A stretch of 26,681 nucleotides of DNA from a virus (lineage: Duplodnaviria; Heunggongvirae; Uroviricota; Caudoviricetes). Below are positions 1-26,501 of the stretch, piece after piece. The stretch lies in IMG/VR virus record IMGVR_UViG_2718217859_000002. The stretch is one strand, 5' to 3'. The translations under genes and the position numbers were made by a program. The notes beneath the pieces are model-generated. The model saw only the letters and a program-made list of their open reading frames with translations. It made no database searches and was not told the DNA's origin. Each line of letters opens with the position of its first letter. The first letter of the stretch is position 1.

Positions 1-621
1 ATGAAAATCCCTTTTAAGTCACCGGCCTTTAATGAGGAGGCATTCAATTGTCCGTTTTGCATGGCATATGCTCAACAGGATTGGTCTGGGTTGAGAGATA
101 AGTACGGAGCACTTAAAGAAGTTTCTCTTTCTAAATGCCGCAATTGCAGCCGGATTGCATATTGGTATGACAAGCGAATGATTGTCCCTCAAGCGAGTGG
201 GATTGAGCCTCCTAATACAGATATGCCTGCTGATTGTGTTGCCGATTACATGGAAGCAAGAAATATTTTCAATCTTTCACCTAAAGGTTCTGCTGCAATC
301 CTTCGTCTTTGCTTACAAAAATTGATGGTGCATCTCGGTTTAGAGGGAGACAAGATCAATGACGATATTGCAACTTTAGTTCAAAAAGGTTTGCCAGAAG
401 AGATTCAACAAGCGTTGGATATCTGTCGTGTTGTGGGTAATAACGCGGTGCATCCTGGTGAAATAAACATTGATGACTCTCCGGAAATTGCAGCTTCACT
501 TTTTGGATTGATAAATTTGATTGTTGAAGAAAGAATCACACGACCACAGAAAGTAGCGAAAATGTACGCGAATCTTCCCGCGGGAGCTAAAGCCGCTATC
601 GAAAGGAGAGATGCCAAATAA
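1..621 (+). CDS. Zn-ribbon plus DUF4145-like domain protein (206 aa)
   Basis: ORF from ATG at window position 1 (upstream not visible, could extend). N-terminal CxxC...CxxC; C-terminal region with [14 protein letters not shown] motif resembling DUF4145 as I recall it. Stop overlaps ATG of next ORF (TAATG). Confidence 0.55.
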
Positions 622-1040
622 TGCCTGGGATTTTAGCAAGCACAGCTACTGCTGTAGGTATCATTGACAAAGCTGTAGGTATTGCAAAGAAGCTCGCTGA
701 TGATGGCGGCGAACTTGATAAAGCAACGCTTAAACTTGAGCTTGCTAACCTCATGAGCGAACTTGCAAGTGTGAAGATGGAAGTAATCACAACCCAAGCA
801 CTTCTTTTTGAGGCTGAACAGAAAAATAAGCAGCTTGAAGATCAGCTAAAGGATAAGCACACCTTCACTTTCAAAGATGGACTTTACTGGAAAGAAGGCG
901 ATGAAACAGCCTACTGTCCCAAATGCTTTGAAGTTGATAAGGTGCAAACACACATGGTTTTTTCGCGTGCCGTTGGTCAATACTCCGCGAGTTGGTATTG
1001 CATTAATTGCAAAAACAGCATTTATCCAAAATCCCGTTAA
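621..1040 (+). CDS. coiled-coil protein with C-terminal CxxC...CxxC zinc ribbon (139 aa)
   Basis: Translationally coupled to upstream ORF; heptad-like K/E/L-rich middle; CPKC...CINC at C-terminus. Confidence 0.5.
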   Translation: MPGILASTATAVGIIDKAVGIAKKLADDGGELDKATLKLELANLMSELASVKMEVITTQALLFEAEQKNKQLEDQLKDKHTFTFKDGLYWKEGDETAYCPKCFEVDKVQTHMVFSRAVGQYSASWYCINCKNSIYPKSR

Positions 1041-1045
1041 AATCG

Positions 1046-1261
1046 TTATTCTTTGGCGGAAGTGTCAAATGTCTTTGCATAAGGGCATTTCCCCTTAGTT
1101 ACGTAAGTGAACAGATAATTGCTGTTCTGATACGTGCACAGCGTTTTTCCATTCTCCGTCTGTTCTTCCTGTGGGTTGACCATTGTTATCTGTCCGGCAT
1201 TCGATAGGGCAGGCAATAGCGCCAACGTCAGAACAAATAAGCATTTAATTTGGATCACCAT
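1046..1261 (-). CDS. small secreted Cys-containing protein (71 aa)
   Basis: Hydrophobic N-terminus ending ALSNA/GQ (signal-peptide-like); ATG overlaps stop of the upstream recombinase ORF (ATGGTGA). Confidence 0.4.
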   Translation of the reverse strand: MVIQIKCLFVLTLALLPALSNAGQITMVNPQEEQTENGKTLCTYQNSNYLFTYVTKGKCPYAKTFDTSAKE

Positions 1262-1833
1262 TCTAAAGAAAACTCCTCTGCTAAATCATCCTGCACATCC
1301 TGACCATACCCGATGTAATACATAGTAGAGCGCGGGTCTGTCTGTCCCAGGAAATGGGCTATTGTCTCTATAGCTACCCCTGCATCAAACATCACACGGC
1401 CCCGACTTTTACGTGGCGTATGGCATCCCACATTAGAGAATCCGGCTCTACGTCCCATTTTCCCAAATTCAGTGAATACCGTGTTACGGGTTACGGCTTC
1501 GCCTTTACTGCGTAATGTGCCAGCACTGAAAATAAAATCTGTAGCTACAGGCATCTTCGTTTGCTCTGCCTTGCGTTGTGCCACCACTGACAACATGGCG
1601 GGGGTAACTTTTGGCCTTACTACGTTTCCGGTTTTCTCCTGCTTTATCTTCAAATGAGATTGCCCCTCAACATCCTGATATTTTAGCTTGAGTACGTCAG
1701 AGACACGCAACCCGCTTTCATACATAAACACCCATAAGCAATAAAACAGGTTGGTTTTACTATTGCGCTGTAGCTCTGCTGCTACTGTTTTTACCTCGTC
1801 TACATTCTTGAGGGCTTGGCTAATACCTTTCAT
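1255..1833 (-). CDS. small tyrosine recombinase (phage integrase fold, about 192 aa)
   Basis: C-terminal catalytic-like residues (GLRVSD, CHTPRKSRG, STMYYIGY). ATG at 1833 has an AAGGAG SD 9 nt upstream; the longer ORF to 1929 lacks one. Confidence 0.6.
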   Translation of the reverse strand: MKGISQALKNVDEVKTVAAELQRNSKTNLFYCLWVFMYESGLRVSDVLKLKYQDVEGQSHLKIKQEKTGNVVRPKVTPAMLSVVAQRKAEQTKMPVATDFIFSAGTLRSKGEAVTRNTVFTEFGKMGRRAGFSNVGCHTPRKSRGRVMFDAGVAIETIAHFLGQTDPRSTMYYIGYGQDVQDDLAEEFSLEW

Positions 1834-1930
1834 CTTTATACTCTCCTTATTCGTTTCAATGAAAGTAGTTTTGATCATAAAACGATCATTTTCAATATGT
1901 TGCACGATACGTTTTATGGTTGAGAGCACT

Positions 1931-2017
1931 AAATGATCAAAAATGATTAAAGGGCTATTAAAAGGTGATTAAGACTGATTAAAAGGTATTAAAGGCGATT
2001 AAAACCGATTTAATTTA
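1931..2017. repeat. iteron-like array, about 7 copies of [G/T]ATTAAA(A)GG at 10-11 bp spacing
   Basis: Direct reading: tgattaaaggg, tattaaaagg, tgattaagac, tgattaaaagg, tattaaagg, cgattaaaacc, gatttaattt. Confidence 0.6.
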
Positions 2018-2243
2018 GGTGCGTCCGTCACCATCGTTGAACACAAAGATCAAGCCTCCCGATCTGATGCAGGCACAAATATGAAATATCTTATTGATTT
2101 ATAAGTAAATTTATTTTATTTAAGCTGTTCACAAATGATTTGTCTTGTCAAGAAATTTATTTTCGGCAGATGAAAAATAGCCAATAAATAGCGATAAATG
2201 GTCTATATATGCCTGAGTATATAAAGATCAGTAGGTTACAGAA

Positions 2244-2262
2244 TACACTTTGCTAAAGTGTA
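2244..2262. promoter_or_regulatory. perfect 8-bp-arm palindrome TACACTTT-gct-AAAGTGTA (operator-like)
   Basis: Inverted repeat read directly. Confidence 0.4.
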
Positions 2263-2647
2263 TCGAATCTGGGTTGTATTGCATTATAAGTGATAATAAT
2301 TCTTATTATTGAATTGTATGACAAATGATTATTCTCTTTGAGATGTGCACGAGTGAACATTCGTTCAACAAATGATAGAACGTTTATTGAGCAACAATTT
2401 TGCAGTGATGCGCTATATGCCGCATTACATAAGGCTTTGCTGATGATAATGTAAAAGTGAAGAAAGTAAGAATTGCACTTTGAATCTACCTTTCATTGCA
2501 TTTTTTAGTAGGGAATTACACGGAATAAGCTATGAATATTCTATGATTTACACGAGATATTCTTGCTGTTTAATTTCGGCTTTGGAGATCAGGCATTCGC
2601 AAGAATACGCTAATGCGTTGCCTGAAAAGCCATTGCACATAATAGAG

Positions 2648-2971
2648 GTGAGCGTATAGCGAACTATCAATGTGATCATTGCACGAATGATAATGAGTGG
2701 ATATAGATTCTATATATCGTTAGATTGTAGTTTGATAGTTAATGTGTAATGTAGATTGTATGAGCGTATAGCGAATGTTAGTTAGATCAACAACAAACTA
2801 ACCTTTAAATCTCTTTTATCTTCTCATAGATATGGCTATGCGTAGCAACCGAAGGTTAGCCATTAATCTATGCAGCCGTAAGGCTGTTTTGCATGTAATA
2901 GTTGTTTGTTGTTGGTAGTCGTTAGACAGTTACCAATTTATAGATCAGAGATAGATGTGAGCGTATAGCGA
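2648..2971. repeat. three dispersed copies of GAGCGTATAGCGA (2648-2662, 2761-2774, 2957-2971)
   Basis: Exact 13-14 nt direct repeats in an ORF-free AT-rich region. Confidence 0.6.
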
Positions 2972-3065
2972 TACACTAATCATAACAATATCTTCTTACT
3001 TTTTAGTTAGTTAGTTGTTAGTAGGTTATTGTTATGCGCGCTATTAGCGCATGTATAAAGGTATC

Positions 3066-3296
3066 ATTTTTATCTAAAGGGCTTTAGACATTTTTGATAC
3101 CTTTTTCATCTCTAAAAAAGTGTAATTTTTATCTAAAGGGGCTTTAGACATTTTTTACACCTTTTTCTGTGCAAGACACTTACCAGTGTGCACAATACTT
3201 ATGCTTTTCTAAAGCCGGGAATTTTTAAGTTTGATTGATCAATTGTTAACTTTAAAAGTTACTTTTAACAATCACTTAGACGATCTAAAGCCGCAA
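3066..3296. promoter_or_regulatory. operator cluster: two 40-bp direct repeats each with palindrome TCTAAAG(G)GGCTTTAGA (3073-3088, 3132-3148) plus TCTAAAG half-sites near 3208 and 3286
   Basis: Read directly; lies upstream of the plus-strand operon starting at 3520. Confidence 0.55.
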
Positions 3297-3437
3297 TTAA
3301 CATAATATAAGTTGACATGCAAGCACTTTTTACCATATAGTGCGGCCCCCTATCTATAAATCACACATTTTACCACTTGTCAATACCATAAATAACCTTA
3401 TAAAACAGGTGCTTAGTTTAGTATTGATAAATATTTA

Positions 3438-3466
3438 TTGACTAATACTATAAGATGGTGTATATT
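3438..3466 (+). promoter_or_regulatory. sigma70-like promoter TTGACT-N17-TATATT
   Basis: Hexamers at 3438-3443 and 3461-3466, about 55 nt upstream of the 3520 start; AGGAGG SD at 3507-3512. Confidence 0.45.
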
Positions 3467-3519
3467 AGCATTAGGGAATTGCATTCCGTAGTAACCAACA
3501 ACAACCAGGAGGTAAATAA

Positions 3520-3750
3520 TTGCGATGGTTTGACACTGAGCAAGTCTACATTGCCCTGAAATGTGGGGAAGTGAAACGCCACACAATAGCCAGCAATATG
3601 GGGCAATGCGTTACCCGTGGAGACGAGAAGCGTGCAAAGATGTTTCGTGATGCTCTTACACGGTATGACAGAGAACGCGCGATCATTGATGCGCAGAATG
3701 TGCCAGGGCGTAAGAAACGTGCTGGACGTAAATCACAATTAATCAACTAA
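3520..3750 (+). CDS. hypothetical basic protein (76 aa), TTG start
   Basis: AGGAGG 7 nt upstream of TTG; basic C-terminus (RKKRAGRK). Confidence 0.45.
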   Translation: MRWFDTEQVYIALKCGEVKRHTIASNMGQCVTRGDEKRAKMFRDALTRYDRERAIIDAQNVPGRKKRAGRKSQLIN

Positions 3751-3770
3751 CAAATAAAGAAAGGTGCTTT

Positions 3771-3932
3771 ATGGATATTCGATTCAATCCAGAAGTATTT
3801 GCAGAATTACGCACGATGGCAACACAACGAGGTATTAGTATTCCCGCGTTAGTTAACGTCATACTTAAAGAAAAAATCATCCTACATCAAGAGGAAAAAT
3901 ATGATAAAGACGATCAAACGAAAAATAGTTAA
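3771..3932 (+). CDS. ribbon-helix-helix (Arc/CopG-like) DNA-binding protein (53 aa)
   Basis: Below ORF-track size cutoff; translated by hand: MDIRFNPEVFAELRTMATQRGISIPALVNVILKEKI... fits a strand-helix-turn-helix pattern. AAGGTG SD upstream. 3' end overlaps next gene in another frame. Confidence 0.4.
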   Translation: MDIRFNPEVFAELRTMATQRGISIPALVNVILKEKIILHQEEKYDKDDQTKNS

Positions 3933-5385
3933 TAGCATTAATCCCGTTTACCTTGTAGATTCAATTTGCGGCTCAGGAAAGAGTCACCGCCTTATAGAAT
4001 ATATACTCGGCCTTCAAGATTCATCTGAAGCTATCCCGCAACGTGTTCTAATAGCCGTTCCTACGCATGAATTAGCCACAGAGACGCGTAATAAGATGTT
4101 AGACGCGGGAATACATGGTTATCATGTTAAAGTCGATAGCGGGGCTGTTTTAGCCCTTAAACAAACACTATCAGAATCCTTTGATTATCCGGTCGTTATT
4201 ACCACGCATCAGGCACTACAGGTTTTTTGTGAGAGAGCAACCTTTGATAGTGAGATGCAAAAACTCCTGTATCCCTTTCAAGTTTTCATTGATGAGATTC
4301 CGGCAGCTTGGCACGGCGATCACGCTACAGTTTTACATAGTGACTCTGTAACGGATAACTTCCCGTTTATGCAGTGGATGGAAGAGAGAGACGGATTATT
4401 ATTCCTTAAGTCTGACAATGAGAACGACCTTTACAAGTATTACCATGAACGCCACGCCGGATCGGATAGCCTGAAAGCGGTTATCTATGCTGTGCTGAAC
4501 GGTAGCGGCTTGCTTTATGGGGAAACAGATAAAGGGTACAGCTTCTTTGCGCAGACAGCTAACCCTGTGATCAATTGTGCAATGTGGTCTGAACGTCTAA
4601 CCATTATGGGGGCGGGTGTTAGCCGATCTGAATGGCGTTATGTAGCTGAGAACGTGGCTAAGGTGGAATGTATGCCAGCTCCTGATCATCTACTACCGGA
4701 CAACGACCGCAGAGAACATAAGAACACGCCTGTTAAACTGGTATCTGTGCTAAAGCCAGGAGTAAGAGCGACGCTTACGCAATTACAGGAAGTTTTTAAC
4801 AACCATCTACAGACGATTGCCCTTACTATGGGAAGTCGGTTTATCTTTGCAACGAACAACGACAAAGGGATCTGTAACTTCAAGACTATTGCACTCGATA
4901 GCCTGGAGGATAACGGGAAAGGAAAAGCGGTAAGCATGGCAAGCTACGGGCTGAACGTATACCAGAGCTACCACGCCGCCGCTTTCCTGGGGTGTGCTAA
5001 CCTCAATGCTACAGATAACAACCGATGGGCGCAATGGCTTAATTTCTCCGGTTATGACGCTGAGGCGGTGTTACGCCTTAAGGTTGAAGCAATGACCTAT
5101 GAGCGTTGCTACCAGTTTATAAGCCGCACAAGCATTCGTGATAGTTCCTGCAAAGAGGCTTTAACGTTTATCGTGCCTGATACGCAGTGTGCTGAATATA
5201 TCAAGCGTTGGTATCTTCCACAGGCTGAGATCACAACGTTAGGCATCGAGAAGGAAAGGAAGAAAGAGAAGGGCGCTAATACAAAGGCAGCTATTCAGGA
5301 ACTGAAAGCTAAAGGCATGAAGCAAAAAGCTGTAGCAGAGGCGTTAGGCTTAGGGATTGCAACGGTTAAACGTAACTGGAAATGA
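3901..5385 (+). CDS. P-loop NTPase, helicase-like (replication-associated?) with C-terminal HTH (494 aa)
   Basis: Walker A CGSGKSH near N-terminus, PTHELA (helicase motif Ia-like), TTHQAL, Walker B VFIDEIP; C-terminal KAVAEALGLGIATVKRN HTH. GAGGA SD upstream. Function inferred from motifs only. Confidence 0.55.
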   Translation: MIKTIKRKIVNSINPVYLVDSICGSGKSHRLIEYILGLQDSSEAIPQRVLIAVPTHELATETRNKMLDAGIHGYHVKVDSGAVLALKQTLSESFDYPVVITTHQALQVFCERATFDSEMQKLLYPFQVFIDEIPAAWHGDHATVLHSDSVTDNFPFMQWMEERDGLLFLKSDNENDLYKYYHERHAGSDSLKAVIYAVLNGSGLLYGETDKGYSFFAQTANPVINCAMWSERLTIMGAGVSRSEWRYVAENVAKVECMPAPDHLLPDNDRREHKNTPVKLVSVLKPGVRATLTQLQEVFNNHLQTIALTMGSRFIFATNNDKGICNFKTIALDSLEDNGKGKAVSMASYGLNVYQSYHAAAFLGCANLNATDNNRWAQWLNFSGYDAEAVLRLKVEAMTYERCYQFISRTSIRDSSCKEALTFIVPDTQCAEYIKRWYLPQAEITTLGIEKERKKEKGANTKAAIQELKAKGMKQKAVAEALGLGIATVKRNWK

Positions 5386-5404
5386 TCTACAACGGTGCAC
5401 ACAG

Positions 5405-5429
5405 AAAGGGGCAAATCAGCCCCTTTTTT
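5405..5429 (+). terminator. rho-independent terminator after helicase-like gene
   Basis: AAAGGGGC-aaatca-GCCCCTTT followed by a T run. Confidence 0.6.
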
Positions 5430-5588
5430 ATTGCCTGTAGTAAATAGCACGAATTGCTAAAGAAAAACTATTGACTATCTATAAACTTTATGATACTCAT
5501 AAGTATTGAGGTGCATACAACCTCAAAAGTAACGTATATAGAGTATCCCTTTATACATATATCATACAACAACCACAAGGAAAAGCAA

Positions 5589-5774
5589 ATGAAATATTTT
5601 TCAGTTTTAGATGTGCTGATGGCACTGATTGAAGGTCGAGTAAGCCGAAACCGGATTCTACAGAACCGTAACGCAGCACGCCGCAGCGGTTATCACGATC
5701 GTGAGGCTCTATTCACCGAAGCCCTGCAAAAGTTCGACCAGATTCGCAAACGTGAGAAGGAAGGGCAGCTATGA
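5589..5774 (+). CDS. hypothetical small protein (61 aa)
   Basis: ATG with AAGGAA SD; the track ORF from 5490 has no SD. Confidence 0.4.
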   Translation: MKYFSVLDVLMALIEGRVSRNRILQNRNAARRSGYHDREALFTEALQKFDQIRKREKEGQL

Positions 5775-6028
5775 AACATCATTTAAGCATTGGTAAGCAC
5801 GAATACGAGATCACGGAAAGCGGATACACACTGGCAAAACAGATCGCTGATAGCAATTATGAGCTACCCGCAATTATCAGCTTTCAGGGGCTACCCCATA
5901 GCAAGGAACACACACAGCACTGGTTAAATCACTTAAGCCATTTCGGGGTGATTCAGTATGAAGCTGTGAATAGTCAGACGTTCCGTTTGCTTGAGATAAA
6001 CCCGTTTGAATTGTGGGTGACGCTGTGA
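5771..6028 (+). CDS. hypothetical protein (85 aa)
   Basis: ATGA overlap with upstream ORF. Confidence 0.45.
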   Translation: MKHHLSIGKHEYEITESGYTLAKQIADSNYELPAIISFQGLPHSKEHTQHWLNHLSHFGVIQYEAVNSQTFRLLEINPFELWVTL

Positions 6029-6231
6029 TCATATTCGATAGCGAATTTTCACAAGAAATCTTTCTGCAATATTTACGGGAAAGAACGGGAATGATTCTGT
6101 TTGATTCTGAGTTTTCCGGTGTGGTAGGTGAGCAATTTTTATATGCTCTTCTCGATAGCCTAAGTAAACAAGGCTTATTGCAATATACAAAAACTCATAT
6201 GAAAGCATTTAGAATCGACTCTGTAGCTTAA
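6013..6231 (+). CDS. hypothetical protein with internal tandem repeat (72 aa), GTG start
   Basis: Protein-level duplication IIFDSEFSQEIFLQYL / ILFDSEFSGVVGEQFLYAL. Confidence 0.35.
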   Translation: MGDAVIIFDSEFSQEIFLQYLRERTGMILFDSEFSGVVGEQFLYALLDSLSKQGLLQYTKTHMKAFRIDSVA

Positions 6232-6269
6232 AACAAACAACTATCAAACATCTTGAAGGGTGGAAAACA

Positions 6270-6371
6270 ATGGAAAGCTTAATATTTTTCTTAGTATTCA
6301 TGATCGCTTCCTTTTTTAACACTGCAAGAAGAAAACCAAAACGAAGGGGAAGCAATGAGCAAGCAAAAAGG
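6270..6371 (+). CDS. 33-aa hydrophobic peptide (single TM helix plus basic tail)
   Basis: Hand-translated: MESLIFFLVFMIASFFNTARRKPKRRGSNEQAKR; GGTGGA SD-like upstream. Below track cutoff. Confidence 0.25.
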
Positions 6372-6735
6372 TAAGAAAAACGTAATAACAACTATTGGCG
6401 AAGCATGTGATCAGTATGCGTTAAACAATCCTCGCAAATATAACTACGAGCATGATGCACAACCAGGCGAAGAATTGATCTTTATACTTGAAGAACCAAG
6501 CCCAGAATTAACAGACGAAGAATTATCACTCATTCAAAGTATGGACGGTGTTTATTTTAATCCACGTCCACGCAAAACAACGGTTATAGATTCCAGTCTT
6601 CTAAAAAGATGGCAGTGTTTGGGGTTTTCAGACATGGCCCATTTTAGGGGGTATATGTCAATGAATAGCCTTCAATATGCAGGCGTGCGAGAAACCGAAT
6701 TACTTCTGCTTGATAAAGTAAACATTGACGATTAA
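6355..6735 (+). CDS. hypothetical protein (126 aa)
   Basis: GAAGGGGAAG SD-like upstream of ATG. Confidence 0.5.
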   Translation: MSKQKGKKNVITTIGEACDQYALNNPRKYNYEHDAQPGEELIFILEEPSPELTDEELSLIQSMDGVYFNPRPRKTTVIDSSLLKRWQCLGFSDMAHFRGYMSMNSLQYAGVRETELLLLDKVNIDD

Positions 6736-6776
6736 CAGCGTTTGCTGAATATAAACCTTAACAAAAGGAAAATAAA

Positions 6777-6998
6777 ATGATTAACAAAGCAATTTTAGAG
6801 ACAACCACTTTTCACGATCTTAAACTTCTTTCTGAATGCTTCATAAGCCTGATTGAACGAGCACAGGAAGAAAACGATCTCGGTTTACTCGATGATATTA
6901 TAGACAACATTGCAACTTATAAAATCCCGCTCACCATTGCTATGAAGAAAGCACGCGAAGCACAACAACAATTAGAACAATTAGAGGAAGTGGCATAA
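6777..6998 (+). CDS. hypothetical protein (73 aa)
   Basis: ORF with AAGGAAAA upstream. Confidence 0.45.
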   Translation: MINKAILETTTFHDLKLLSECFISLIERAQEENDLGLLDDIIDNIATYKIPLTIAMKKAREAQQQLEQLEEVA

Positions 6999-7306
6999 TG
7001 AGCACTACACACAACGTAACTATTCAGATGATGGATCTGATTATTTCTTTACAGAAGGCAGTTAATTCGGCTCTGACGTTTCCAACTGAGCTAACCATTG
7101 CACAGGCTGTTATTAACCTGGAATCGACGCGGGAAGCACTTGAACTACTTATTGCAGCGTGCGAACAATCCGAAGGTGCACAGGTTGAAGCTGACGAATT
7201 GTCTAATCTGATCATCGTTATTCATGACACCACTGAAATCATGAAAGAAGCGGTAGCAGACCTGCAACCACTCATTAATGAACTAATCGACAAGGCTAAC
7301 AACTAA
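6998..7306 (+). CDS. hypothetical acidic protein (102 aa)
   Basis: ATAATG overlap coupling with upstream ORF. Confidence 0.45.
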   Translation: MSTTHNVTIQMMDLIISLQKAVNSALTFPTELTIAQAVINLESTREALELLIAACEQSEGAQVEADELSNLIIVIHDTTEIMKEAVADLQPLINELIDKANN

Positions 7307-7515
7307 TGACAAAAACTAAACGTGTGCGCCTTCTGGCGCTCACAGAAGAAGGGAAAGCGGGTAATTGTTTCACAGTAGGTAAAGTGTATACCGGCTTACT
7401 CGACACTTACACCCGCCTGATGCACGTAACCGATGATAACGGTAACGATCAAACAATCGTTTTAGATGGTAATTGCGTATTTGGTGAATGGGAACTGACA
7501 ACCGAAAAGAATTGA
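7306..7515 (+). CDS. hypothetical protein (69 aa)
   Basis: TAATG overlap coupling. Confidence 0.45.
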   Translation: MTKTKRVRLLALTEEGKAGNCFTVGKVYTGLLDTYTRLMHVTDDNGNDQTIVLDGNCVFGEWELTTEKN

Positions 7516-7534
7516 AAAAACTTTGATTTAACTA

Positions 7535-7563
7535 TTGACTTTATAACAGAAATGTTATATAAT
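7535..7563 (+). promoter_or_regulatory. near-consensus sigma70 promoter TTGACT-N17-TATAAT
   Basis: Hexamers at 7535-7540 and 7558-7563 with a 17-nt spacer. Confidence 0.5.
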
Positions 7564-7569
7564 AAGAAG

Positions 7570-7810
7570 TGTAGGGGAAAGAATCTAAAACAGGTGTTAG
7601 CTGGCGTTAATCCTTCTCCCGATTTTAATCCTACACGAAAGCGGGGTAGACCTCAAGGGGTCGCGCCCTATCTAACCTGCCTCGCTTTCCCTTTACCAGT
7701 TTTTTTAGAAATTGTTTCCCTCGTTAATAGTTTCATATATTTTCCTTATTGCTTTATCAAAATTGTGTCTTAAGAATGCAGGGGCTACGGATTTGGCCCC
7801 TCATCTTTTT
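7570..7810 (+). ncRNA. candidate small non-coding RNA (promoter to terminator, no convincing ORF or SD)
   Basis: Predicted start about 7570; GC stem pairing 7634-7645 with 7681-7691 followed by a T run near 7700; second terminator at 7781-7810. Confidence 0.3.
7781..7810 (+). terminator. rho-independent terminator
   Basis: GGGGC-loop-GCCCC followed by TCATCTTTTT. Confidence 0.55.
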
Positions 7811-7957
7811 AACCAACTGCGAAGCATGAAACACTTTCTAAAAACACTGTTTACAGTGTCTATAAACCCCGTATAAACAAATAACGGTGTATATTGTTTC
7901 TTGACAACAATTCTACTAAGCCAAAAGCTGAATATGTTTTTTGTTTGTTGGTGTTTA

Positions 7958-8146
7958 TTAAGGTGCCAATCTTAGAACGCTGAAAGCGTGGATGATCCCC
8001 GAAATCATCTCGGCACCGCCTCCTATTAAAATGAGAATCCAAAAGGTTTGAAAGTTAATAGTAGTTCCTAAAAGTCTGATCGATGCATCCACATTGTGAA
8101 AGACAGCGATTAGCCATCGCACGAATAACAGGTTTATAGATTCCAA
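7958..8146 (-). CDS. small hydrophobic protein (62 aa), TTG start
   Basis: Perfect AGGAGG SD 8 nt upstream of TTG (minus strand); hydrophobic sequence with GGG turn. Confidence 0.3.
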   Translation of the reverse strand: MESINLLFVRWLIAVFHNVDASIRLLGTTINFQTFWILILIGGGAEMISGIIHAFSVLRLAP

Positions 8147-8310
8147 AGGGGGCGACCTCCTAAGCGCCTACTCCCTGTAAGCCTGTTATTCAACCCCTCA
8201 AGGGTATATAACAATAAGCAATCTTATTCTTATATGTCCTCCTCTTTAAGTTCATATAACTGCGATTTAGTAACACTCTATAACATCCTTCAAATGTTGT
8301 ATTCATAAAG

Positions 8311-8340
8311 CCGGAAGCTTTCCCCTTCCGGTTTTATTTT
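8311..8340 (+). terminator. rho-independent terminator just upstream of structural operon
   Basis: CCGGAAG-ctttccc-CTTCCGG followed by TTTTATTTT. Confidence 0.6.
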
Positions 8341-8382
8341 GTCAGCACTAAACAAGAATGTTAGAAAAAAGGTAAAGCAACA

Positions 8383-8598
8383 ATGCAAAATCTCATTCTA
8401 AAGAATGGTAATGAAGAATTGATTATCACTAATGAAGCATTCAACGCTACGGCTTATATGTTGGGAATCACTCCCACAGAATTGAAAAAACATTGTGATA
8501 AGCTTTTTAAGTCTGCTGATGAACAGAAACCTACTATGCAGGATCTGATTAAAGCAAAAGCAGAACAAATCAAACAATCCAAAAAAGGAAACAATTAA
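8383..8598 (+). CDS. hypothetical small protein (71 aa)
   Basis: AAGGTAAAG SD upstream; first gene of structural cluster. Confidence 0.45.
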   Translation: MQNLILKNGNEELIITNEAFNATAYMLGITPTELKKHCDKLFKSADEQKPTMQDLIKAKAEQIKQSKKGNN

Positions 8599-8601
8599 TT
8601 T

Positions 8602-8973
8602 ATGGCTATTATTAATATGAGCGATCTGTTTCCAGTTCGCAAATCATTTACCGATATCGTTTCATATGCAACTGATGAGTTCGGTTGTGTGCAATCTTTT
8701 ACCGTTGATCTGGCGGTTGATGTTGAATGTGGCGATCTGATTACCAGTGACGGCGCTGAATATGTAAGCGGCGGCGATGTTCTTGTCGTTGTGTCTGATG
8801 CGGTATCCGCTGGCGACGCTAAAACCGTTAACGTGCTGCGTAGCAATGCCGGACTGGTTTGCATCAAATCCGATGCTCTGAATGTTGAAGGCGCTGTGAA
8901 AGAAGCCGCTATTGCTGCCCTGGCTGCAAAAGGTTTCCAGATGGCTGGCTTTAATACTGTATTCACATCTTAA
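8602..8973 (+). CDS. putative head decoration-like / minor virion protein (123 aa)
   Basis: Beta-rich V/D/A/G/S composition; sits immediately upstream of the capsid-like gene (decoration-then-capsid order as in lambda D-E). Homology not verified. Confidence 0.4.
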   Translation: MAIINMSDLFPVRKSFTDIVSYATDEFGCVQSFTVDLAVDVECGDLITSDGAEYVSGGDVLVVVSDAVSAGDAKTVNVLRSNAGLVCIKSDALNVEGAVKEAAIAALAAKGFQMAGFNTVFTS

Positions 8974-8991
8974 TATAAAGGAATAAAAATA

Positions 8992-10020
8992 ATGATTATT
9001 GGTAATGAATCCGTCGATCTGGCTCCGCTGTTTAGTCTGCACGACTCTCGCAACTTCCTGTTAACTTCTCTCGACTTTACTGATCCGGTAGGTGTGAGTT
9101 CTCATAAAGTGGCTGTTAGCCAACTGGTGGAAACTAACGAATCTCTGTTCAACAAAGAAACCTCTCGTTTCTCTTCTGAACATAACGTGACTAAACGTGA
9201 ACAGGGTAAAGAATTTTTAGTAGAGATCCCCTACTTCCTGCGTGAAGATATGATTAAGCCGCAAGACGTGCAAGGCAAACGTAAGCCAGGCGCTACCGTT
9301 GAAGAAACTCTGACAGATATCTACGCGGAATATGTTGCTAAGCACCACATTGCTTTCCAGCGTACTAAAGAGAGCGTGCTGGCTGCTTCCCTGTTTAGTG
9401 GTCGCACCTACACCCCTAAAACTGACGATGTGCTGATCCAGTGGGGCGATCTGTTCAGTGCTGTTCCGATGACTGCAACCATCGACGCATCAAGCACCAC
9501 ACCTTCTATGGTGTTCCAGCAATTCGATCAGATGCATACAGACGTTATCACTAAAGCACAAAGCCAGGCGGCTGCTGTAGAGCGTATCGTTGTATTCTGT
9601 AAACCTGCCGCTTTCAACGCTATCCGTTACAGTGCTGGCATGGTTAACGCGTTCCAGTATGCAAGCCCTACCGACGACGCAAACATCGTTTATAGCGTGC
9701 GCTCCCTGCTGCCAGGTGTGACTACCTTCACTATTCCAGGGACTAATATCGATATCGTCAAAGTTACCGATCCGCTGCTGCTGGCGCATATGACTTCTGA
9801 TGCGGTGGCTGTTCCGAAGTTCGCTAAAGGCTCTAACGTCTATCAGAACATTTTCGGCGCTCCGTCTTCAACGTTCGACCTGCTGAATTCTGGATCGGCT
9901 GAATATTACAGCTATGCATTTAGCCCAGCACGTAACGACGCTGTAAACGTAGTTACCGAGAATAGCCAGATGGTTGTAAACCACGGCGTAGGCTTCACTG
10001 TACAGATCACAGTAGCGTAA
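8992..10020 (+). CDS. putative major capsid protein (342 aa; lambda gpE-like size and architecture)
   Basis: Size, position and a 30-aa helix-prone segment (TLTDIYAEYVAKHHIAFQRTKESVLAASLF) compatible with an HK97-fold spine helix; strong SD. Inference, not search-based. Confidence 0.5.
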   Translation: MIIGNESVDLAPLFSLHDSRNFLLTSLDFTDPVGVSSHKVAVSQLVETNESLFNKETSRFSSEHNVTKREQGKEFLVEIPYFLREDMIKPQDVQGKRKPGATVEETLTDIYAEYVAKHHIAFQRTKESVLAASLFSGRTYTPKTDDVLIQWGDLFSAVPMTATIDASSTTPSMVFQQFDQMHTDVITKAQSQAAAVERIVVFCKPAAFNAIRYSAGMVNAFQYASPTDDANIVYSVRSLLPGVTTFTIPGTNIDIVKVTDPLLLAHMTSDAVAVPKFAKGSNVYQNIFGAPSSTFDLLNSGSAEYYSYAFSPARNDAVNVVTENSQMVVNHGVGFTVQITVA

Positions 10021-10070
10021 TAAAGCGTTAATAGTCGTTTCCTGTGCGACTGGAAATAAAACAGGCAATA

Positions 10071-10137
10071 AGGGCAAAAGGGATTAACTAACCTGTAAAG
10101 CAAATACAGTAACGGATCTCTTTGCCCTTTTTGTTTT
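10071..10137 (+). terminator. structured terminator after capsid-like gene
   Basis: 9-bp stem AGGGCAAAG/CTTTGCCCT enclosing a 39-nt loop with nested CTGTA/TACAG hairpin, then TTTTGTTTT. Confidence 0.45.
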
Positions 10138-10170
10138 CTACCGTTTATTAAATATTGTGAGAGAAAAACC

Positions 10171-10362
10171 ATGAACACACAAAACAACAATCCCGTTGAA
10201 ATCTTGAAAGCTGTTTCCACCTTACCGGAAGATATTCTGAATATCTCTCAAGTATGCAAGTTTTTAGGGATCTCTAATACCGCTGTACGTCAAAGAATCT
10301 TTGCTACTGGCTGTTCCGCTATGGAAGCAGTGCAATATTACGTAGCAAAACAAAATAAGTAA
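10171..10362 (+). CDS. small HTH DNA-binding protein (63 aa)
   Basis: ISQVCKFLGISNTAVRQRIF helix-turn-helix pattern. Confidence 0.45.
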   Translation: MNTQNNNPVEILKAVSTLPEDILNISQVCKFLGISNTAVRQRIFATGCSAMEAVQYYVAKQNK

Positions 10363-10380
10363 AAGATAAAGGAAAATATT

Positions 10381-12222
10381 ATGGATCTGAATATCTCAAC
10401 CTTAACAAACAAGGTTGTATTTAAGGTGGATTTTGCATCATTACAGAAAGCACGCGATGCAGGTAAGAAATTCCAGAAAGAAATGGAAAACCTAACCAAT
10501 CCAACATTGAAAGGGAAGAAGGCTAAACGAGCTATAGACGATGCTAACGATCTGGTAAAAGCCCGTAAAGCTACACAGGCTAAAGCTGATGCCAAAGCGT
10601 CAGACAAGCAAGCTCAAACCGATAAGAAGAACGCTGATAAGGTGGCAAAGGCAGAAGCTAAAGCGAAGGCTAAAGCCGCTATAGCTGCCGATAAACAGAT
10701 CCGCGCTAAAGCAACGATAGCAGAGAAGGCAGAGATTAAACGCCAGCAAGCTTTTAGACAGCTTGAAGGCATCAAGAAAGGGCGTATGGGTGACGGTATG
10801 GACTCCGCCCAATACTACAAAACATTACAATACATCAAACAACAAACGGCAGCTTACGAGAAAGGCGCTATTAGTCAGGCTAAGATGAATCACCTGATCC
10901 GTGATCGCATCACGTTAGAACGCCGTGCGGCTGCTGTTAAAGCTCGCCAGGTGGCGGCTGATGGCGGTAAATATCCACATATGGCTAAACAGCTTAAAGG
11001 TGGTCATATAGGCGGTGGTGTAGGTGCAATGGTGGGCGGTGCTGCTCTCACTGCTGCTACTCTCGGCGGTGCTGCGATATTCAATACCGTAACCGATCAG
11101 GCAAGCAAGATCACAGACACTAACCGCAAGGCAAAAGCTGTTAACGTCAACACTAACGCCCTGTTAGCACTCAACCAGTACGGCTTAGAGCACGGGGTAG
11201 ATAGTTCCGTTGATCAACGTCAAGATAACCTTAAAGACGTTCAAGAACGTTTAGGCGAGACGATAGGGAATACTAAGTGGGATGCTAAAAAGGGTCGCTG
11301 GGCGGGGGGTAACGGTGCCGTTGATAACATCCTTAACAAATATGGTTGGAGTCCTGAACAGGTTAAAGGTTTCCAAACTGATCCATTAGGTTTCCTGGGT
11401 GCTGTAGTGAAAGAAGGCGAACGCCGTGGACTCTCTGACCAGGAGCAGGGTCACATGCTCGAAGACCTTGGAAATGATTTACAATATTTCCGTGGGGCTT
11501 TCAGTCGTAACGGTGAAGAGTTAAATAAAACTCTCGTTAAGATGCAACAAGCCAACGCCACCTATACACAAGCGGATCTTGACGCTGCTGAACGTCTGCA
11601 AGCTGTACAGGCTAATATGAATATGGCCTGGGAAGGTAGTAAGAAAGCTATCATGACGGGATTCGGTGAAGAGTTCGACGCTCAAGCTGGTGAAGAGTGG
11701 GCGCAAATGTTGAAAGATCTCAATCCTCTGTTTAAAGAACTTGGAAGCTCAACGGCTGAAATGATGAGTGCCTTTGCTGGTGCTGTATCGTGGCTTACTG
11801 CTGCATACCAGAATATAAATCCAGAGAACAAACATGAAAACCTTGATTCGTCCGGTATGTATTATAAGGACTCGTTTGTAGGTGGTATGGTTGATTGGGG
11901 TCGTAGTGCTTTAGGCTTATCGCCTATCCCTGGCACGGAAGACAAGCCAACAACTGGCGGAACTGCAATTCAGAACTATGCAAGCCCGTCCGAGAACGTG
12001 CAATCCCTGAAACAGAACGTTAGCCGTGATCTGAACACTACCCCATCTATGACGTATGCGCCAAGCATTGTCGTAAACGTGCCAGAAAGTAAGGTTGATG
12101 TGAATATCGCCCCTGATGGCTCTCAGCTTGGATCATACCTCGACTACAAAGTGGGAAGTATCCAACAAGATTTTGAACGTAGTTTCACGTTGGCGGCTCT
12201 GTCTGGGCAAGCACCAAGTTAA
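10381..12222 (+). CDS. large coiled-coil protein with Gly-rich hydrophobic segment (613 aa), tape-measure/pilot-like
   Basis: K/A/E-rich N-terminal coiled coil; GGHIGGGVGAMVGGAALTAATLGGAAIF segment; AAGGAAAA SD. Confidence 0.55.
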   Translation: MDLNISTLTNKVVFKVDFASLQKARDAGKKFQKEMENLTNPTLKGKKAKRAIDDANDLVKARKATQAKADAKASDKQAQTDKKNADKVAKAEAKAKAKAAIAADKQIRAKATIAEKAEIKRQQAFRQLEGIKKGRMGDGMDSAQYYKTLQYIKQQTAAYEKGAISQAKMNHLIRDRITLERRAAAVKARQVAADGGKYPHMAKQLKGGHIGGGVGAMVGGAALTAATLGGAAIFNTVTDQASKITDTNRKAKAVNVNTNALLALNQYGLEHGVDSSVDQRQDNLKDVQERLGETIGNTKWDAKKGRWAGGNGAVDNILNKYGWSPEQVKGFQTDPLGFLGAVVKEGERRGLSDQEQGHMLEDLGNDLQYFRGAFSRNGEELNKTLVKMQQANATYTQADLDAAERLQAVQANMNMAWEGSKKAIMTGFGEEFDAQAGEEWAQMLKDLNPLFKELGSSTAEMMSAFAGAVSWLTAAYQNINPENKHENLDSSGMYYKDSFVGGMVDWGRSALGLSPIPGTEDKPTTGGTAIQNYASPSENVQSLKQNVSRDLNTTPSMTYAPSIVVNVPESKVDVNIAPDGSQLGSYLDYKVGSIQQDFERSFTLAALSGQAPS

Positions 12223-12280
12223 TGATAAAGAGAATGTTTAATCACAATCTAAAACACTCTTATAAGGAATTAAGCATATA

Positions 12281-12314
12281 AGAGGCTCCCATTACAAGGA
12301 AGCCTCTTTATTGC
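12281..12314. terminator. hairpin terminator between convergent genes
   Basis: AGAGGCTCC-attacaa-GGAAGCCTCT then TTTATTG. Confidence 0.5.
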
Positions 12315-12329
12315 GCCTATGGCGTTGTT

Positions 12330-13550
12330 TTAAGCCTTAAAATCAATATTTAATTCATATCTTACTAATTCTACATATTCAGCTAATTCTTGAATGCTTG
12401 CCCCTTGTGAGTAGGTGCGAAAGGCTTCTGTTTTAGCTATCTGCTCTGTATGTCCGGTAATGGCTCCGATCCGCTGTTCAGGCACTCCTGCACGATCAAG
12501 ACAAGTGATAAACATCCCGCGCAAGCTGTGAAAGCATTGTCTATTTGTAGCGATTGGCAAGACGCTACGACGTAAACGTGAGAATGCTTGAGAATAGAAC
12601 GGGCCTTTCTTACCGTCGATTCTTTTTACTTTGTTCGAGTGAGGGAACAAATATTCACCATAATTATGATTTAAATATTCATCGACAATAATCGATAGTC
12701 TCGAATGTATCGGAACGTGTCTGATCCCTGCTTTAGTCTTACTTTTGCTGATATAAAAACAGCGTATTCCTTCCACAGTTACAACCTCTGACTTTTTCAG
12801 AGTTGCCAGTTCGTCTAATCTGCATCCTGAAAACAAGCCCATTAAAATAATATTTCTGATCTCCGGCTCCGCTGCATCAAGTAGCTTTTGCATTTGTTCA
12901 GGTGTAAACGGTTGATAACTCTCGATTGTGCGACGTGCTTCGAGGTTATGACCGTGAAAAGGGTTACTGTCTGGTATTCCGTCATAACGGCGTTTAGCAA
13001 ATTCATAGAGCGATCCTAAGCATGTAAGCCAGTTTTGACGAGATTGATCGGCTGCTCCTCGTTGCTTCTGGTCATCTAAGAATACTGTTACAAGCCGTCT
13101 GCCTATTTTCTCAATATGAATATCATCTTTCTGAATGCTTTGTAAAAATAGCTCAACGGCCCTTGCTGATTTCTGTAGTGTTGAGTATGAACGACGCTCT
13201 CTGTAGCATTCGGCGTATTCGTCACGTATTAGGCACAGGGAAGGCGGTGCATAACCGCGTTTTACAGCTCTTTGCGTGTTTTTATTGGCACTTGCCTCTG
13301 AATGTAAGGATTCAATAGCTTTTTGTAACCTCCTTTCGGGGTTATCAGGATTATGTTTCCGCTTTAGTTCCTCCCATTCTAATAACAGATGGTTTCTGAA
13401 TCTTCTCGCCTCATTCAGATCTCGTGTAGATGTGCTTTTTCTCCACAACTTGTAAGGGTAAAGATGGCGTAAGTATTTAGGAACAAAAATCTGAAACATC
13501 CAGATCCCATCTTTTCTCTTAAATAAGTATGCTTGGCTCTTGATCGACAC
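12330..13550 (-). CDS. int: tyrosine integrase of element 1 (406 aa), GTG start
   Basis: C-terminal HSLRGMFITCLDRAGV...GHT...Y catalytic-like motifs; N-terminal YLFKRKDGIWMF arm-binding-like hairpin; GAGGA SD. Confidence 0.85.
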   Translation of the reverse strand: MSIKSQAYLFKRKDGIWMFQIFVPKYLRHLYPYKLWRKSTSTRDLNEARRFRNHLLLEWEELKRKHNPDNPERRLQKAIESLHSEASANKNTQRAVKRGYAPPSLCLIRDEYAECYRERRSYSTLQKSARAVELFLQSIQKDDIHIEKIGRRLVTVFLDDQKQRGAADQSRQNWLTCLGSLYEFAKRRYDGIPDSNPFHGHNLEARRTIESYQPFTPEQMQKLLDAAEPEIRNIILMGLFSGCRLDELATLKKSEVVTVEGIRCFYISKSKTKAGIRHVPIHSRLSIIVDEYLNHNYGEYLFPHSNKVKRIDGKKGPFYSQAFSRLRRSVLPIATNRQCFHSLRGMFITCLDRAGVPEQRIGAITGHTEQIAKTEAFRTYSQGASIQELAEYVELVRYELNIDFKA

Positions 13551-13657: not shown

Positions 13658-13821
13658 AACAAACATTTCTCAACGTCTACTAAAGTCCATCAAACCCACG
13701 AATATCAAGCCTTCCAGGCATTTTCATAGTTTATTAACGTCTACTCACAACTACCAGAATCTACACACAGAAGTGTATAGTAATGCGTATAGGACAAAAT
13801 TTATTTTTTGGAGCTATACAC

Positions 13822-15036: not shown

Positions 15037-15134
15037 CTGGTTGAGTATACAGTAGTAGACTTTGAGCACCTAAAAAGGCTGATGCAAACAGAGCTGGATC
15101 GGCCTTAACATTAGACCGCTTGAAGGGGGAGAAT

Positions 15135-15848: not shown

Positions 15849-16107
15849 ATAGTGGTCGCTATTCCAGAAAAATGGTGGTTTCCTTTCAAAAAAAAGTAAC
15901 CACCAATGCAGATTAAATCGTAAGAACAGTAATTTTTCTTCGTGTTTCACGTCAGCATGATACTTAAAATAGTAAACGCCATTATTAAAAAAAGGTGGAG
16001 CTATTTCACTGAAATGGTATTCGCCATTCATAATGGTAAGCATCTATAAATATCACTTTTCTTAATGCAAGCTATGTACACCTTTATAGACGTTACAAGG
16101 TGAATAT

Positions 16108-16305: not shown

Positions 16306-16382
16306 TTAAATGGCTACGGGGCTATTGCCCCCAGCTATCCACCAGCAAATAAAAGTAACTTAATTCGATAGCAGGAGTTTTT

Positions 16383-26490: not shown

Positions 26491-26501
26491 AGGTGTAAAT
26501 C

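Follow-up and report, generated by a model that had tools for sequence, protein, structure and literature searches.

A gene-free stretch of exchangeable modules, possibly a control and replication-origin region, in a satellite-like island of Escherichia coli

The stretch considered here, positions 1931-3519 of a 26,681-nt viral DNA record (IMG/VR IMGVR_UViG_2718217859_000002, the whole of which is called the window below), belongs to an island of ~13 kb whose gene content suggests a relationship to phage satellites. We tentatively read it, with slightly less than even confidence, as the cis-acting control region and probable replication origin of this island, built from modules that can be exchanged one for another. 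In agreement with the first-pass annotation of this DNA, these ~1.6 kb are AT-rich (GC 0.33, compared with 0.41-0.50 in the flanks), contain no open reading frame (ORF) of at least 60 aa and lie between a small leftward tyrosine recombinase gene (1255-1833) and a rightward operon for a 76-aa protein, a ribbon-helix-helix (RHH) protein and a helicase-like protein. The same annotation had proposed a combined origin, partition-like and operator region. The operator is supported by the anatomy of the stretch and an origin is plausible for the right third only, while the partition-like part found no support. By its layout, the right third could plausibly be an origin merged with an autoregulated promoter. 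What is new here is a conserved modular trait of a widespread island family, comprising a universal non-coding core, A-tract arrays shared across genera and a hairpin-dense centre.

The longest frame within the stretch has 59 aa and a TTG start (2480-2659). Relatives carry indels of 1 and 2 nt in the core, a 2-nt indel breaking a 28-aa frame at 2832-2918, and the frames are thus not conserved as coding sequences. A type I toxin or other micro-ORF was discarded in view of this broken frame, and there is no conserved hydrophobic small ORF. We also rejected the possibility that the stretch consists of decayed genes: tblastn with the genes which relatives carry at the same position (a Dam methylase, a 127-aa ORF, a serine recombinase and others) detected no remnants, all E values being above 1. 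No tRNA was found in the stretch.

Its repeats were compared with 1000 dinucleotide-preserving shuffles of the region. All families named in the first-pass annotation are present beyond chance once their coordinates are slightly corrected. The sequence ACAAATGAT indeed occurs three times, at 2131, 2321 and 2368 instead of 2131, 2317 and 2366, a count matched by none of the 1000 shuffles. The three predicted copies of GAGCGTATAGCGA were found at 2650, 2762 and 2959 (again 0/1000), with copies 1 and 3 extending to 21 nt, and TCTAAAG/CTTTAGA occurs six times if both strands are counted (0/1000). Palindromes described at 2244-2262 and 2356-2369 exist at 2243-2263 and 2356-2367. A pair described as two 40-bp units is truly palindromic, but it consists of two tandem 59/60-bp units; likewise, the array of GATTAAA iterons is real, but the strict word is found only three times and the degenerate form [GTC]ATT[TA]A[AG] seven times. 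The inverted repeat with 8-bp arms (3242-3249/3265-3272) exists, yet as a hairpin it is no better than chance (z -0.8). There are 10 GATC sites in the region versus 3.4 expected, a number reached by 3 of the 1000 shuffles, at a density not above that of the neighbouring coding DNA. The A+T content peaks at 2081-2140 and 3221-3280, the only two such 60-nt segments of the region, and each of them adjoins repeat arrays.

Exchangeable modules and sites linked to the helicase

Alignments with related islands show the stretch to be a conserved mosaic with breakpoints at 2363 and 3345, which we read as built from independently exchangeable modules. Islands with a serine recombinase (L003 type) have window sequence in common only from 2363 rightward in local alignments, and islands with a different replication (Rep) protein (L002 type) from the left up to 3189. 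The segment 3190-3336 is missing in L002 and present in L196, which shows it to be an indel and places the true junction to the helicase-type module at 3345; positions 3346-3519 are specific to helicase-type islands. Outside the core the sequence is not conserved between island types, and 2560-3200 was found in 75 genomes only, all copies being at least 95% identical. In one of the relatives (L200), 288 bp (2663-2950) have been lost by recombination between copies 1 and 3 of GAGCGTATAGCGA, and insertion sequence (IS) elements lie in or after the middle module of L199 and L201. The 60-bp unit, single in most relatives, is duplicated in tandem in the window, L001 and L194. The small recombinases of the relatives belong to three tyrosine types (181-205 aa) which are ~25% identical to one another, or are serine recombinases (179-185 aa), and their genes stand left or right of the iteron array or are absent. 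Because they are so heterogeneous in sequence and position, we consider them variable cargo of the island left end and not a fixed partner of the non-coding DNA.

The family-wide module is a non-coding core on the plus strand (2363-2553) which includes AAAGTGAAGAAAG and a repeated ATTACAC motif. In 740 records, all of them unannotated at this place, its identity is 76-96%, and nearly all of these records match only 2337/2363-2553. The core aligns across the E. coli groups and more loosely with Leclercia and Klebsiella, and since the aligned relatives differ by 1- and 2-nt indels a coding function is excluded. Its orientation relative to the operon is constant in all loci. Straight after the core, the Klebsiella and Raoultella islands have the start of a phage-type N6-adenine (Dam) methylase gene on the plus strand (L186 5285-5974, L188 2688-3371, L189 2846-3514, L191 2902-3570), where the E. 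coli islands are non-coding, so that this position behaves as a cargo hotspot. The placement of the Dam gene suggests that transcription leaves the core rightward. A promoter scan detected no convincing rightward promoter in the core of the window; in L004 a strong rightward promoter lies 240 nt upstream of the core. Two candidate functions of the core were dropped. A pairing of the kind known from P4 can be drawn between core positions 2408-2420 and the GAGCGTATAGCGA repeats (12/13), but the best pairing run of the repeat with the whole region, 11, was reached or exceeded in 20% of 300 shuffles (P = 0.2), and a boxA/nut-like core (group B) came down to one 9/10 match that is not conserved in the window.

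The GGTATCA/TGATACC units appear, from their distribution among the islands, to travel with the helicase-type replication module. Homologues of the helicase-like protein are 38-49% identical in Citrobacter, Enterobacter, Klebsiella and E. coli, and the RHH sequence co-varies with the helicase type. Strict TGATACC/GGTATCA motifs are located at -460 to -190 from the first ORF in the window, in L003 and in three family islands (L203, L204 and L206) whose helicases are 45-47% identical and whose upstream DNA has diverged beyond detection by blastn; these helicase-type islands come from E. coli, Klebsiella and Citrobacter-like contigs. In L203, L204 and L206 alike, a GGTATCA...TGATACC pair accompanied by A and T runs is placed 190-340 nt upstream from the first ORF and matches unit 1 of the window; one or two extra direct TGATACC copies bring the strict copies to 3-4 within 120-140 bp. 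L206 was examined as a test of the predicted TGATACC pair, and the pair was present. In L205, with a helicase of 38% identity, a GGGTAAT...TTTACCC variant resembles unit 2 of the window. Among 12 islands with other Rep types, the equivalent zone has the strict motif in L002 alone, a recent recombinant. Farther upstream, L005 has three copies of an unrelated GATACCCC array at about -1290 to -1230 and L183 a lone copy at -1038. The motif is also absent from L202, where the helicase gene sits in a different kind of element. At the corresponding place, islands with other Rep types have different palindromic iterons in variable copy number, and the motifs we call A, B and D correlate largely, not perfectly, with the Rep family.

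In the window, the two tandem 59/60-bp imperfect palindromic units (3054-3112 and 3113-3172) are candidate binding sites for proteins of the RHH/helicase module and at the same time resemble terminators. Their outer arms are GGTATCA/TGATACC in unit 1, the one strict inverted pair (3060/3096), and the variant GTGTAAT/TTACAC in unit 2; the inner arms are ATCTAAAG/CTTTAGA, and each unit lies between an A run and a T run. Folding energies of the units are -12 to -19 kcal/mol, with z-scores from -2.2 to -6.8 and the better values on the minus strand. Directly after them comes the A+T-rich DNA that is expected next to the binding sites of an iteron origin: two copies of TCTAAAGCCG (3208 and 3284) surround a stretch of 80% A+T (3221-3280), and this candidate unwinding region (3208-3293) also holds two GATC sites and the inverted repeat at 3242-3272. 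Further right on the plus strand there are two sigma-70-like promoters, TTGACA N18 TATAGT (11/12, 3312-3341) and TTGACT N17 TATATT (10/12, 3438-3466), the second one 54 nt upstream of the first ORF. The palindrome TAGTATTGATAAATATTTATTGACTAATACTA (3419-3450) overlaps the -35 sequence of the second promoter and is a putative operator, while TTTTACC-type half sites are found at 3324 and 3364. In the leader itself (3473-3519), a short GGAAT-TGC-ATTCC hairpin is all there is, with a (CAA)n tract between it and the Shine-Dalgarno sequence. A terminator-like hairpin with a T run, which the window leader lacks, lies between the operon promoter and the first ORF in most relatives (L004 10530-10600, L183 6940-6985, L203 4140-4185, L204 4130-4170) and suggests control by attenuation or antitermination there.

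In the model that we propose, 3054-3400 would serve as replication origin and operator of the RHH-helicase module. The RHH protein, or the C-terminal helix-turn-helix (HTH) of the helicase, would bind the inverted and direct TGATACC-type sites, and the adjacent stretch of 80% A+T would melt. As the sites extend into the promoter region, the early operon might be autoregulated through the palindrome at 3419-3450. The core and the hairpin-dense middle would act in cis as structures of DNA, or of single-stranded DNA or RNA, and 1931-2330 would be intrinsically bent, A-tract-phased DNA flanking an A+T-rich spacer which, together with a leftward and possibly Fur-controlled promoter, would provide the leftward cargo genes with their upstream region and a long leader.

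Several observations weigh against this model. In the window a single GGTATCA/TGATACC pair is strict and the other copies are degenerate, and neither DnaA-box nor IHF nor 13-mer consensus sites were found in the region. Islands with a different Rep (L002, L196-L200) retain the 60-bp unit as well, which we assume to reflect recent recombination since the identity of all copies is 95% or more. L204 and L206 (78% identical) belong to a single lineage, which leaves only three or four independent helicase-type lineages. The promoter count of the region does not exceed that of the shuffles (8 vs 10.4). With their flanking A and T runs the 60-bp units can be read equally well as bidirectional terminators: T runs follow them on the plus strand (TTTTT(C)) and on the minus strand (TTTTTT or TTTAT), behind A+T-rich stems with internal loops of 4-6 nt, even though a scan with a terminator consensus did not call them. 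Finally, the deletion in L200 and the IS elements in L199 and L201 indicate that part of the middle module is dispensable in nature.

The left arrays and the hairpin-dense middle

The left module (1931-2362) begins on the plus strand with seven phased A-tract iterons (1931-2013), [GTC]ATT[TA]A[AG]GG-like and with a period of ~10.3 bp as judged by Tandem Repeats Finder and the motif positions. The degenerate iterons start at 1945, 1956, 1967, 1977, 1987, 1997 and 2007 (spacings 11, 11, 10, 10, 10, 10), 112-174 nt upstream of the recombinase start codon, and the offset is the same in Klebsiella. Between E. coli and Klebsiella the array is 78% identical, while the adjoining recombinases share 25% and the RHH proteins 21-31% identity. 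Islands that have no recombinase (L004, L136) carry it too, and in L195 it lies to the left of a serine recombinase. Since the recombinases and RHH proteins diverge while the array holds, it is conserved independently of every nearby DNA-binding protein encoded by the island. This argues against a partition centromere or a recombinase site and would, on the same comparison, argue for a site read by the host or by a helper, or for intrinsically bent DNA.

After the iterons, at 2078-2200, comes A+T-rich spacer DNA in which ATCTTATTGATTTATAAG is conserved and which includes two palindromes, ACAAATGATTTGT and TCTTGTCAAGA; an inverted second array, AAATAGCCAATAAATAGCGATAAATGG, follows. Positions 2081-2140, with 83% A+T, are the richest 60 nt of the region. 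This layout recurs in L004, where the inverted arrays are 74% complementary over 38 nt, and in the Klebsiella loci L186 and L203. The palindrome at 2243-2263, with a 9-bp stem (ATACACTTT-GCT-AAAGTGTAT, fold z -2.9), is preceded by a conserved CAGTAGGTTACA; its Klebsiella counterpart has another sequence that still pairs (TAGGACA...TGTCCTA), and L204 and L206 keep the stem with a different loop. On the minus strand at 2292-2324, a consensus match identifies a leftward promoter-like sequence, TTGTCA N17 AATTAT, overlapped by a Fur-box-like palindrome (14/19). In Klebsiella, consensus matches likewise identify a Fur-box-like GAAATGATAATCATTATCA (17/19) and a leftward TTAACA N16 TATCAT (L186 4950-4990, L203 3090-3115). 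A Fur box over a leftward promoter in both genera hints at iron-responsive control of the leftward cargo genes. There is no excess folding in the left module (z -0.6 and -0.9).

The excess of self-complementarity is confined to 2553-3190. Fold z-scores are -2.9/-3.4 for 2553-3056 and -4.4/-4.9 for 2340-3190, compared with -0.4 to -0.9 in the left and right parts and -0.6 to +1.1 in four coding controls. The analogous segments of L203, L204, L004 and L186, unrelated in sequence, gave z-scores of -1.3 to -8.0, and at all five loci the minus strand folds as well or better. Along the module we find a nested long hairpin at 2578-2632 (GGCTTT-CAGGCA-ACGC...GCGT-TGCCTG-AAAGCC; -22.4 kcal/mol, z -2.9), with a different long hairpin after a common TTTCCGGCTC in L203, L204 and L206. 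Three direct plus-strand repeats (ATAGAKG)TGAGCGTATAGCGA, at 2649, 2761 and 2958 within 2642-2972, have a related copy, TGAGCGTAAGCGAATGGTTGTTAG, in the downstream block of L002. Inverted repeats spanning 130 nt (2786-2916; fold z -3.75 on the plus and -4.37 on the minus strand) resemble a three-way junction with a closing stem of 11-13 bp, a 7+7-bp arm capped by AACC-GAA-GGTT and a GCAGCC-GTAA-GGCTGT hairpin. The hairpin ATGCGC-GCTATTA-GCGCAT at 3035-3053 keeps its stem with other loops in the helicase-type islands L203 (AATTCC) and L206 (TGATCAC). In these comparisons, it is the structure of the middle module that is conserved rather than its sequence. Covariation within the window's own variant has no power, as identity among its 75 copies is 95% or more (95-97% in the relatives aligned over 2786-2916) and what differences there are fall in loops or are uninformative.

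A related observation concerns an invariant 12-mer, TGCGCTGTGCGC, present in 24 of the 29 sequences checked, in four genera and with several Rep types. It is missing in the window type (window, L001, L003) and in L184/L185, of which L184 has a one-base variant, TGCGCTATGCGC. Ahead of the 12-mer lies a three-way junction (L004 9520-9620, L183 6290-6400, L186 6280-6375, L203 3680-3735 and others) whose three helices are kept through 3-4 different sequences each in eight lineages; the ~115 pairs are all Watson-Crick, with no G-U. This junction is a strong candidate, from its pattern of substitutions, for a conserved structured element of RNA or single-stranded DNA. A common 10-mer, GTTAGTAGGT, had hinted that the middle module might be an inverted copy of the TGCGCTGTGCGC block, an idea we rejected as local alignments in both orientations did not rise above shuffles.

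Alternative explanations

A serious, though rather unlikely, alternative is that ~2363-3170 encodes a large structured non-coding RNA, or serves as a long structured leader, that regulates the island in immunity, helper sensing or antitermination. Its transcription would start in the core and stop at the two hairpin-plus-T-run units. Such an RNA would account for the confinement of the folding excess to the middle and its recurrence with different sequences in every relative tested, for hairpins at equal positions with differing sequences, and for the three helices kept through 3-4 sequences each in the junction upstream of TGCGCTGTGCGC. GNRA-type loops (GTAA, GTGA) are present on the plus strand, T runs follow the units, and rightward transcription out of the core is likely in view of the Dam gene of Klebsiella and Raoultella; the strong rightward promoter 240 nt upstream of the L004 core also speaks for this reading. 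However, Rfam 15 gave no match at gathering thresholds in the whole window, and between 1800 and 3800 the best E value was 1.3 or worse (17-23 bits), with nothing convincing at E up to 10. The window's core has no convincing rightward promoter, the z-scores are equal or better on the minus strand in five loci and for the units too, so that the strand is undefined, and junction pairs that are all Watson-Crick fit DNA palindromes better. The window variant offers no covariation power, and the complementarity between the core and GAGCGTATAGCGA is at chance level. The bolder version, in which core and middle encode a new class of large (0.6-1 kb) structured RNA replacing a protein repressor, for instance to sense or hijack a helper, is unlikely, and we would say the same of the architecture that goes with it, a sequence-conserved 5' part followed by lineage-specific structured domains. 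If true, this would be an RNA family absent from Rfam and yet present in ~14% of complete E. coli genomes.

The perfect Watson-Crick palindromes, which fold equally on both strands, would suit DNA hairpins used in single-stranded form, such as priming signals of an origin; G4-type single-strand initiation (ssi) sites and the ssiA/ssiB hairpins of RSF1010 oriV would be possible precedents. In the relatives these hairpins sit between the iterons with their A+T-rich DNA and the Rep operon, and an invariant GC-rich 12-mer across genera and Rep types is what one expects of a target for a host enzyme. We nevertheless regard this as improbable: the 12-mer is lacking in the window type, and neither a primase gene nor a PriA-type site was identified in the island. 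It is more improbable still that much of the stretch is a functionless A+T-rich spacer, silenced by H-NS, whose repeats arose by slippage and template switching. The restriction of the middle module to 75 nearly identical genomes (at least 95%), its tolerance of a 288-bp deletion and of IS insertions, the varying number of 60-bp units and the poor conservation of non-core sequence between island types are what such a spacer would predict. Against this, every relative in five genera keeps 1.3-3 kb gene-free in a ~12-kb island, the core and the left arrays are conserved across genera, the excess of structure recurs with different sequences, and there are no gene remnants.

An invertible promoter switch run by the small recombinase, of the fimS/FimB-FimE or Hin/hix type, is extremely improbable. 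A small tyrosine or serine recombinase does adjoin the region in most relatives, and there are weak matches to NCBIfam models, but the 192-aa recombinase scores 29-31 bits with the tyrosine-type DNA invertase models (cut-offs 221-222) and the serine recombinases of the relatives 42-54 bits with the Mpi invertase model (cut-off 272), in both cases far below the family cut-offs. Inversion of the segment, for which the first-pass annotation had recommended a search in read data, was not seen in the assembled loci compared: none of 637 high-scoring segment pairs (HSPs) between 17 related loci is on the minus strand, the best E. coli alignments are colinear, and the core always has the same orientation. 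Moreover, the recombinases are interchangeable cargo, 25% identical and found on either side of the iterons or not at all, and long-range inverted repeats are only 71-88% complementary, in A+T-rich DNA. We therefore rejected the switch. One palindromic unit of ~57 bp, upstream of the helicase-type operon, is indeed flipped in the Klebsiella locus L203 (3871-3913) relative to the E. coli and Citrobacter-like loci L204 (3875-3919) and L206 (2373-2417), with colinear flanks and a minus-strand HSP of 86% identity (E = 4e-12); this opposite orientation could be cited in favour of a switch, but we attribute it to the palindromic nature of the unit, which is too short for an inversion made by a recombinase.

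That the GATTAAA array is a parC-like centromere, or the region a cos or pac site for the terminase of a helper, is hardly likely either. There is a likeness to parC and to certain pac sites in the tandem iterons of 10-11 bp and their two inverted arrays; that the array is kept whatever the island proteins would suit a site recognised by helper or host, and GATC is enriched for the composition. However, no ParA/ParM-type gene was detected among the island ORFs by Pfam and PHROGs scans (PHROGs only for ORFs 5490-8973), and the array stays at 78% identity from E. coli to Klebsiella against 21-31% for the RHH proteins, so that the partition-like claim of the first-pass annotation was not borne out. 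The region has no nucleotide similarity to 50,697 phage records, and its GATC density does not exceed that of neighbouring coding DNA. A cos site in the stretch was rejected since cosN-like matches are found at 8147, the sole non-coding one of the island and in the other gene-free gap, and at 704 inside an ORF, with none in 1931-3519. Thus the partition, inversion-switch, cos and P4-immunity readings each failed a testable defining feature, and the control and origin region set out above is the reading we retain.

The island family and comparison with known systems

The window is E. coli chromosomal DNA: megablast with 1200-5400 gave matches solely in E. coli chromosomes, and none in the 50,697 phage or in 72,556 plasmid records. 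In strain EC21GDE043 (99.1% identity), the island is located immediately after tRNA-Gly (glyU); it extends from there to a 406-aa DUF6538-type integrase adjoining yqeG and corresponds to window 1-13550. From its left end, the island encodes a DUF4145 protein (1-621) and, after two small ORFs, the 192-aa tyrosine recombinase on the minus strand (1255-1833; Pfam Phage_integrase, 8e-16). The early operon on the plus strand (3520-5385) encodes the 76-aa protein, whose family is conserved across all islands, a 53-aa RHH/Arc-like protein and a 494-aa helicase-like protein. The latter has a C-terminal HTH match (PF13384 in one homologue) and matches no named Rep family in NCBIfam. A dozen small ORFs separate this operon from a second gene-free gap (7516-8383), beyond which lie a lambda-gpE-like major capsid protein (8992-10020), a 613-aa tape-measure-like protein and the integrase on the minus strand (12330-13550). 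Terminase, portal and protease were not recognised among the island ORFs in the Pfam and PHROGs scans mentioned above. This gene content is the reason for which we call the island phage-satellite-like.

The left ends of these islands, from attL to the iteron array, are variable and look like a defence-gene hotspot: they carry DUF4145 with a 139-aa partner (window 1-1261), a GmrSD-type endonuclease (L005), an HNH protein (L184, L204) or an OLD-like AAA/TOPRIM protein (L202). In the second gap, a promoter-like TTGACT...TATAAT (~7537-7565), GC-rich hairpins and a terminator-like GCAGGGGCTACGGATTTGGCCCCTCATCTTTTT (~7779-7811) suggest a small RNA of ~220 nt, in which case the 73-aa ORF at 7552-7773 may be spurious. 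The lambda-cosN-like AGGGGGCGACCTCC at 8147 (10/12 matches) stands directly upstream of the head genes and is kept in L002 and L003, not in other island types. An unrelated second element follows in tandem (13783-26681), with a P4-type integrase (Arm-DNA-bind_3), an AntA antirepressor, a D5-type primase-helicase (19278-21050) and a ProQ/FinO protein (21692-22270). Just 3' of its primase gene there are tandem 10-bp repeats TGAACACTAC / AACTGTTCAC of the TGTTCAC type (21058-21079, 21219-21235, 21294-21326), by analogy the classical position of a satellite origin.

By blastn with the stretch, 740 records from 739 of 5426 complete E. coli genomes were recovered (~14%, about one in seven), and the matches are spread over several chromosomal sites. 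With a profile built on the protein that comes first in the operon, the family extends to E. albertii, E. ruysiae, Leclercia, Klebsiella and Raoultella, and relatives are present in Citrobacter-like contigs too. Genome contigs were also searched with a purine-rich 17-mer, GTAAAAGTGAAGAAAGT; among the matches listed, mostly due to chance, one locus (L018) was a true relative, as were ten loci from viral collections. Every relative, in five genera, has 1.3-3 kb of gene-free DNA upstream of a rightward operon that ends in a capsid gene, amounting to 10-25% of islands of ~12-13 kb. The literature that we searched contains no description of this region or island family, and RefSeq records show no annotated feature for the gene-free region; the family is undescribed and its genes are annotated almost wholly as hypothetical. 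For so compact an element to devote 10-25% of its length to gene-free DNA points to a role that is likely central to replication, silencing or the response to a helper. The analysis provides a map of separable modules, namely the TGATACC sites with the A+T stretch, the cross-genus A-tract arrays, the universal 190-nt core and the hairpin block.

Among known elements, the island resembles phage-inducible chromosomal islands (PICIs) of the capsid-forming kind and capsid-modifying satellites in its size of ~12-13 kb, its integrase, replication module and own capsid gene, and its high frequency in Enterobacteriaceae. It differs from capsid-forming PICIs in that portal, protease and small terminase were not recognised, in having no nucleotide match to phages or plasmids, and in its large gene-free fraction. 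The ~190-aa recombinase next to a promoter-bearing non-coding stretch recalls fimS/FimB-FimE and Hin/Gin/Pin; in contrast to these, a single orientation is found in the genomes examined and the recombinases are variable cargo with scores below thresholds. Tandem 10-11-bp repeats in helical phase with an RHH gene nearby are typical of parC/ParR centromeres and omega-type RHH operator arrays, whereas here a partition NTPase is missing, the RHH protein diverges next to repeats that stay conserved, and the phased A-tracts may simply be bent DNA. A long untranslated, repeat-bearing region upstream of the replication operon, with no recognisable cI-type repressor nearby, is reminiscent of P4 (CI RNA, seqA/seqC) and of P1/P7 (c4 RNA), from which the stretch is set apart by repeat-core complementarity at chance level, by the lack of an Rfam match and by the absence of a defined promoter-terminator pair.

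The closest likeness of the right third is to iteron origins such as P4 ori/crr, bound by the C-terminal domain of the alpha protein, the Staphylococcus aureus pathogenicity island (SaPI)/PICI ori next to pri-rep, and RSF1010 oriV. In contrast to these, the candidate sites precede the operon here and merge with its promoters, there is one strict pair, and DnaA and IHF sites are lacking. The second element of the window, with its TGTTCAC-type repeats 3' of the D5 primase-helicase, displays the classical layout. What the right third would have in common with these origins is a combination of direct and inverted short candidate sites, an A+T-rich stretch and a nearby helicase-type gene with an HTH, and the sites appear to track the Rep type across genera.

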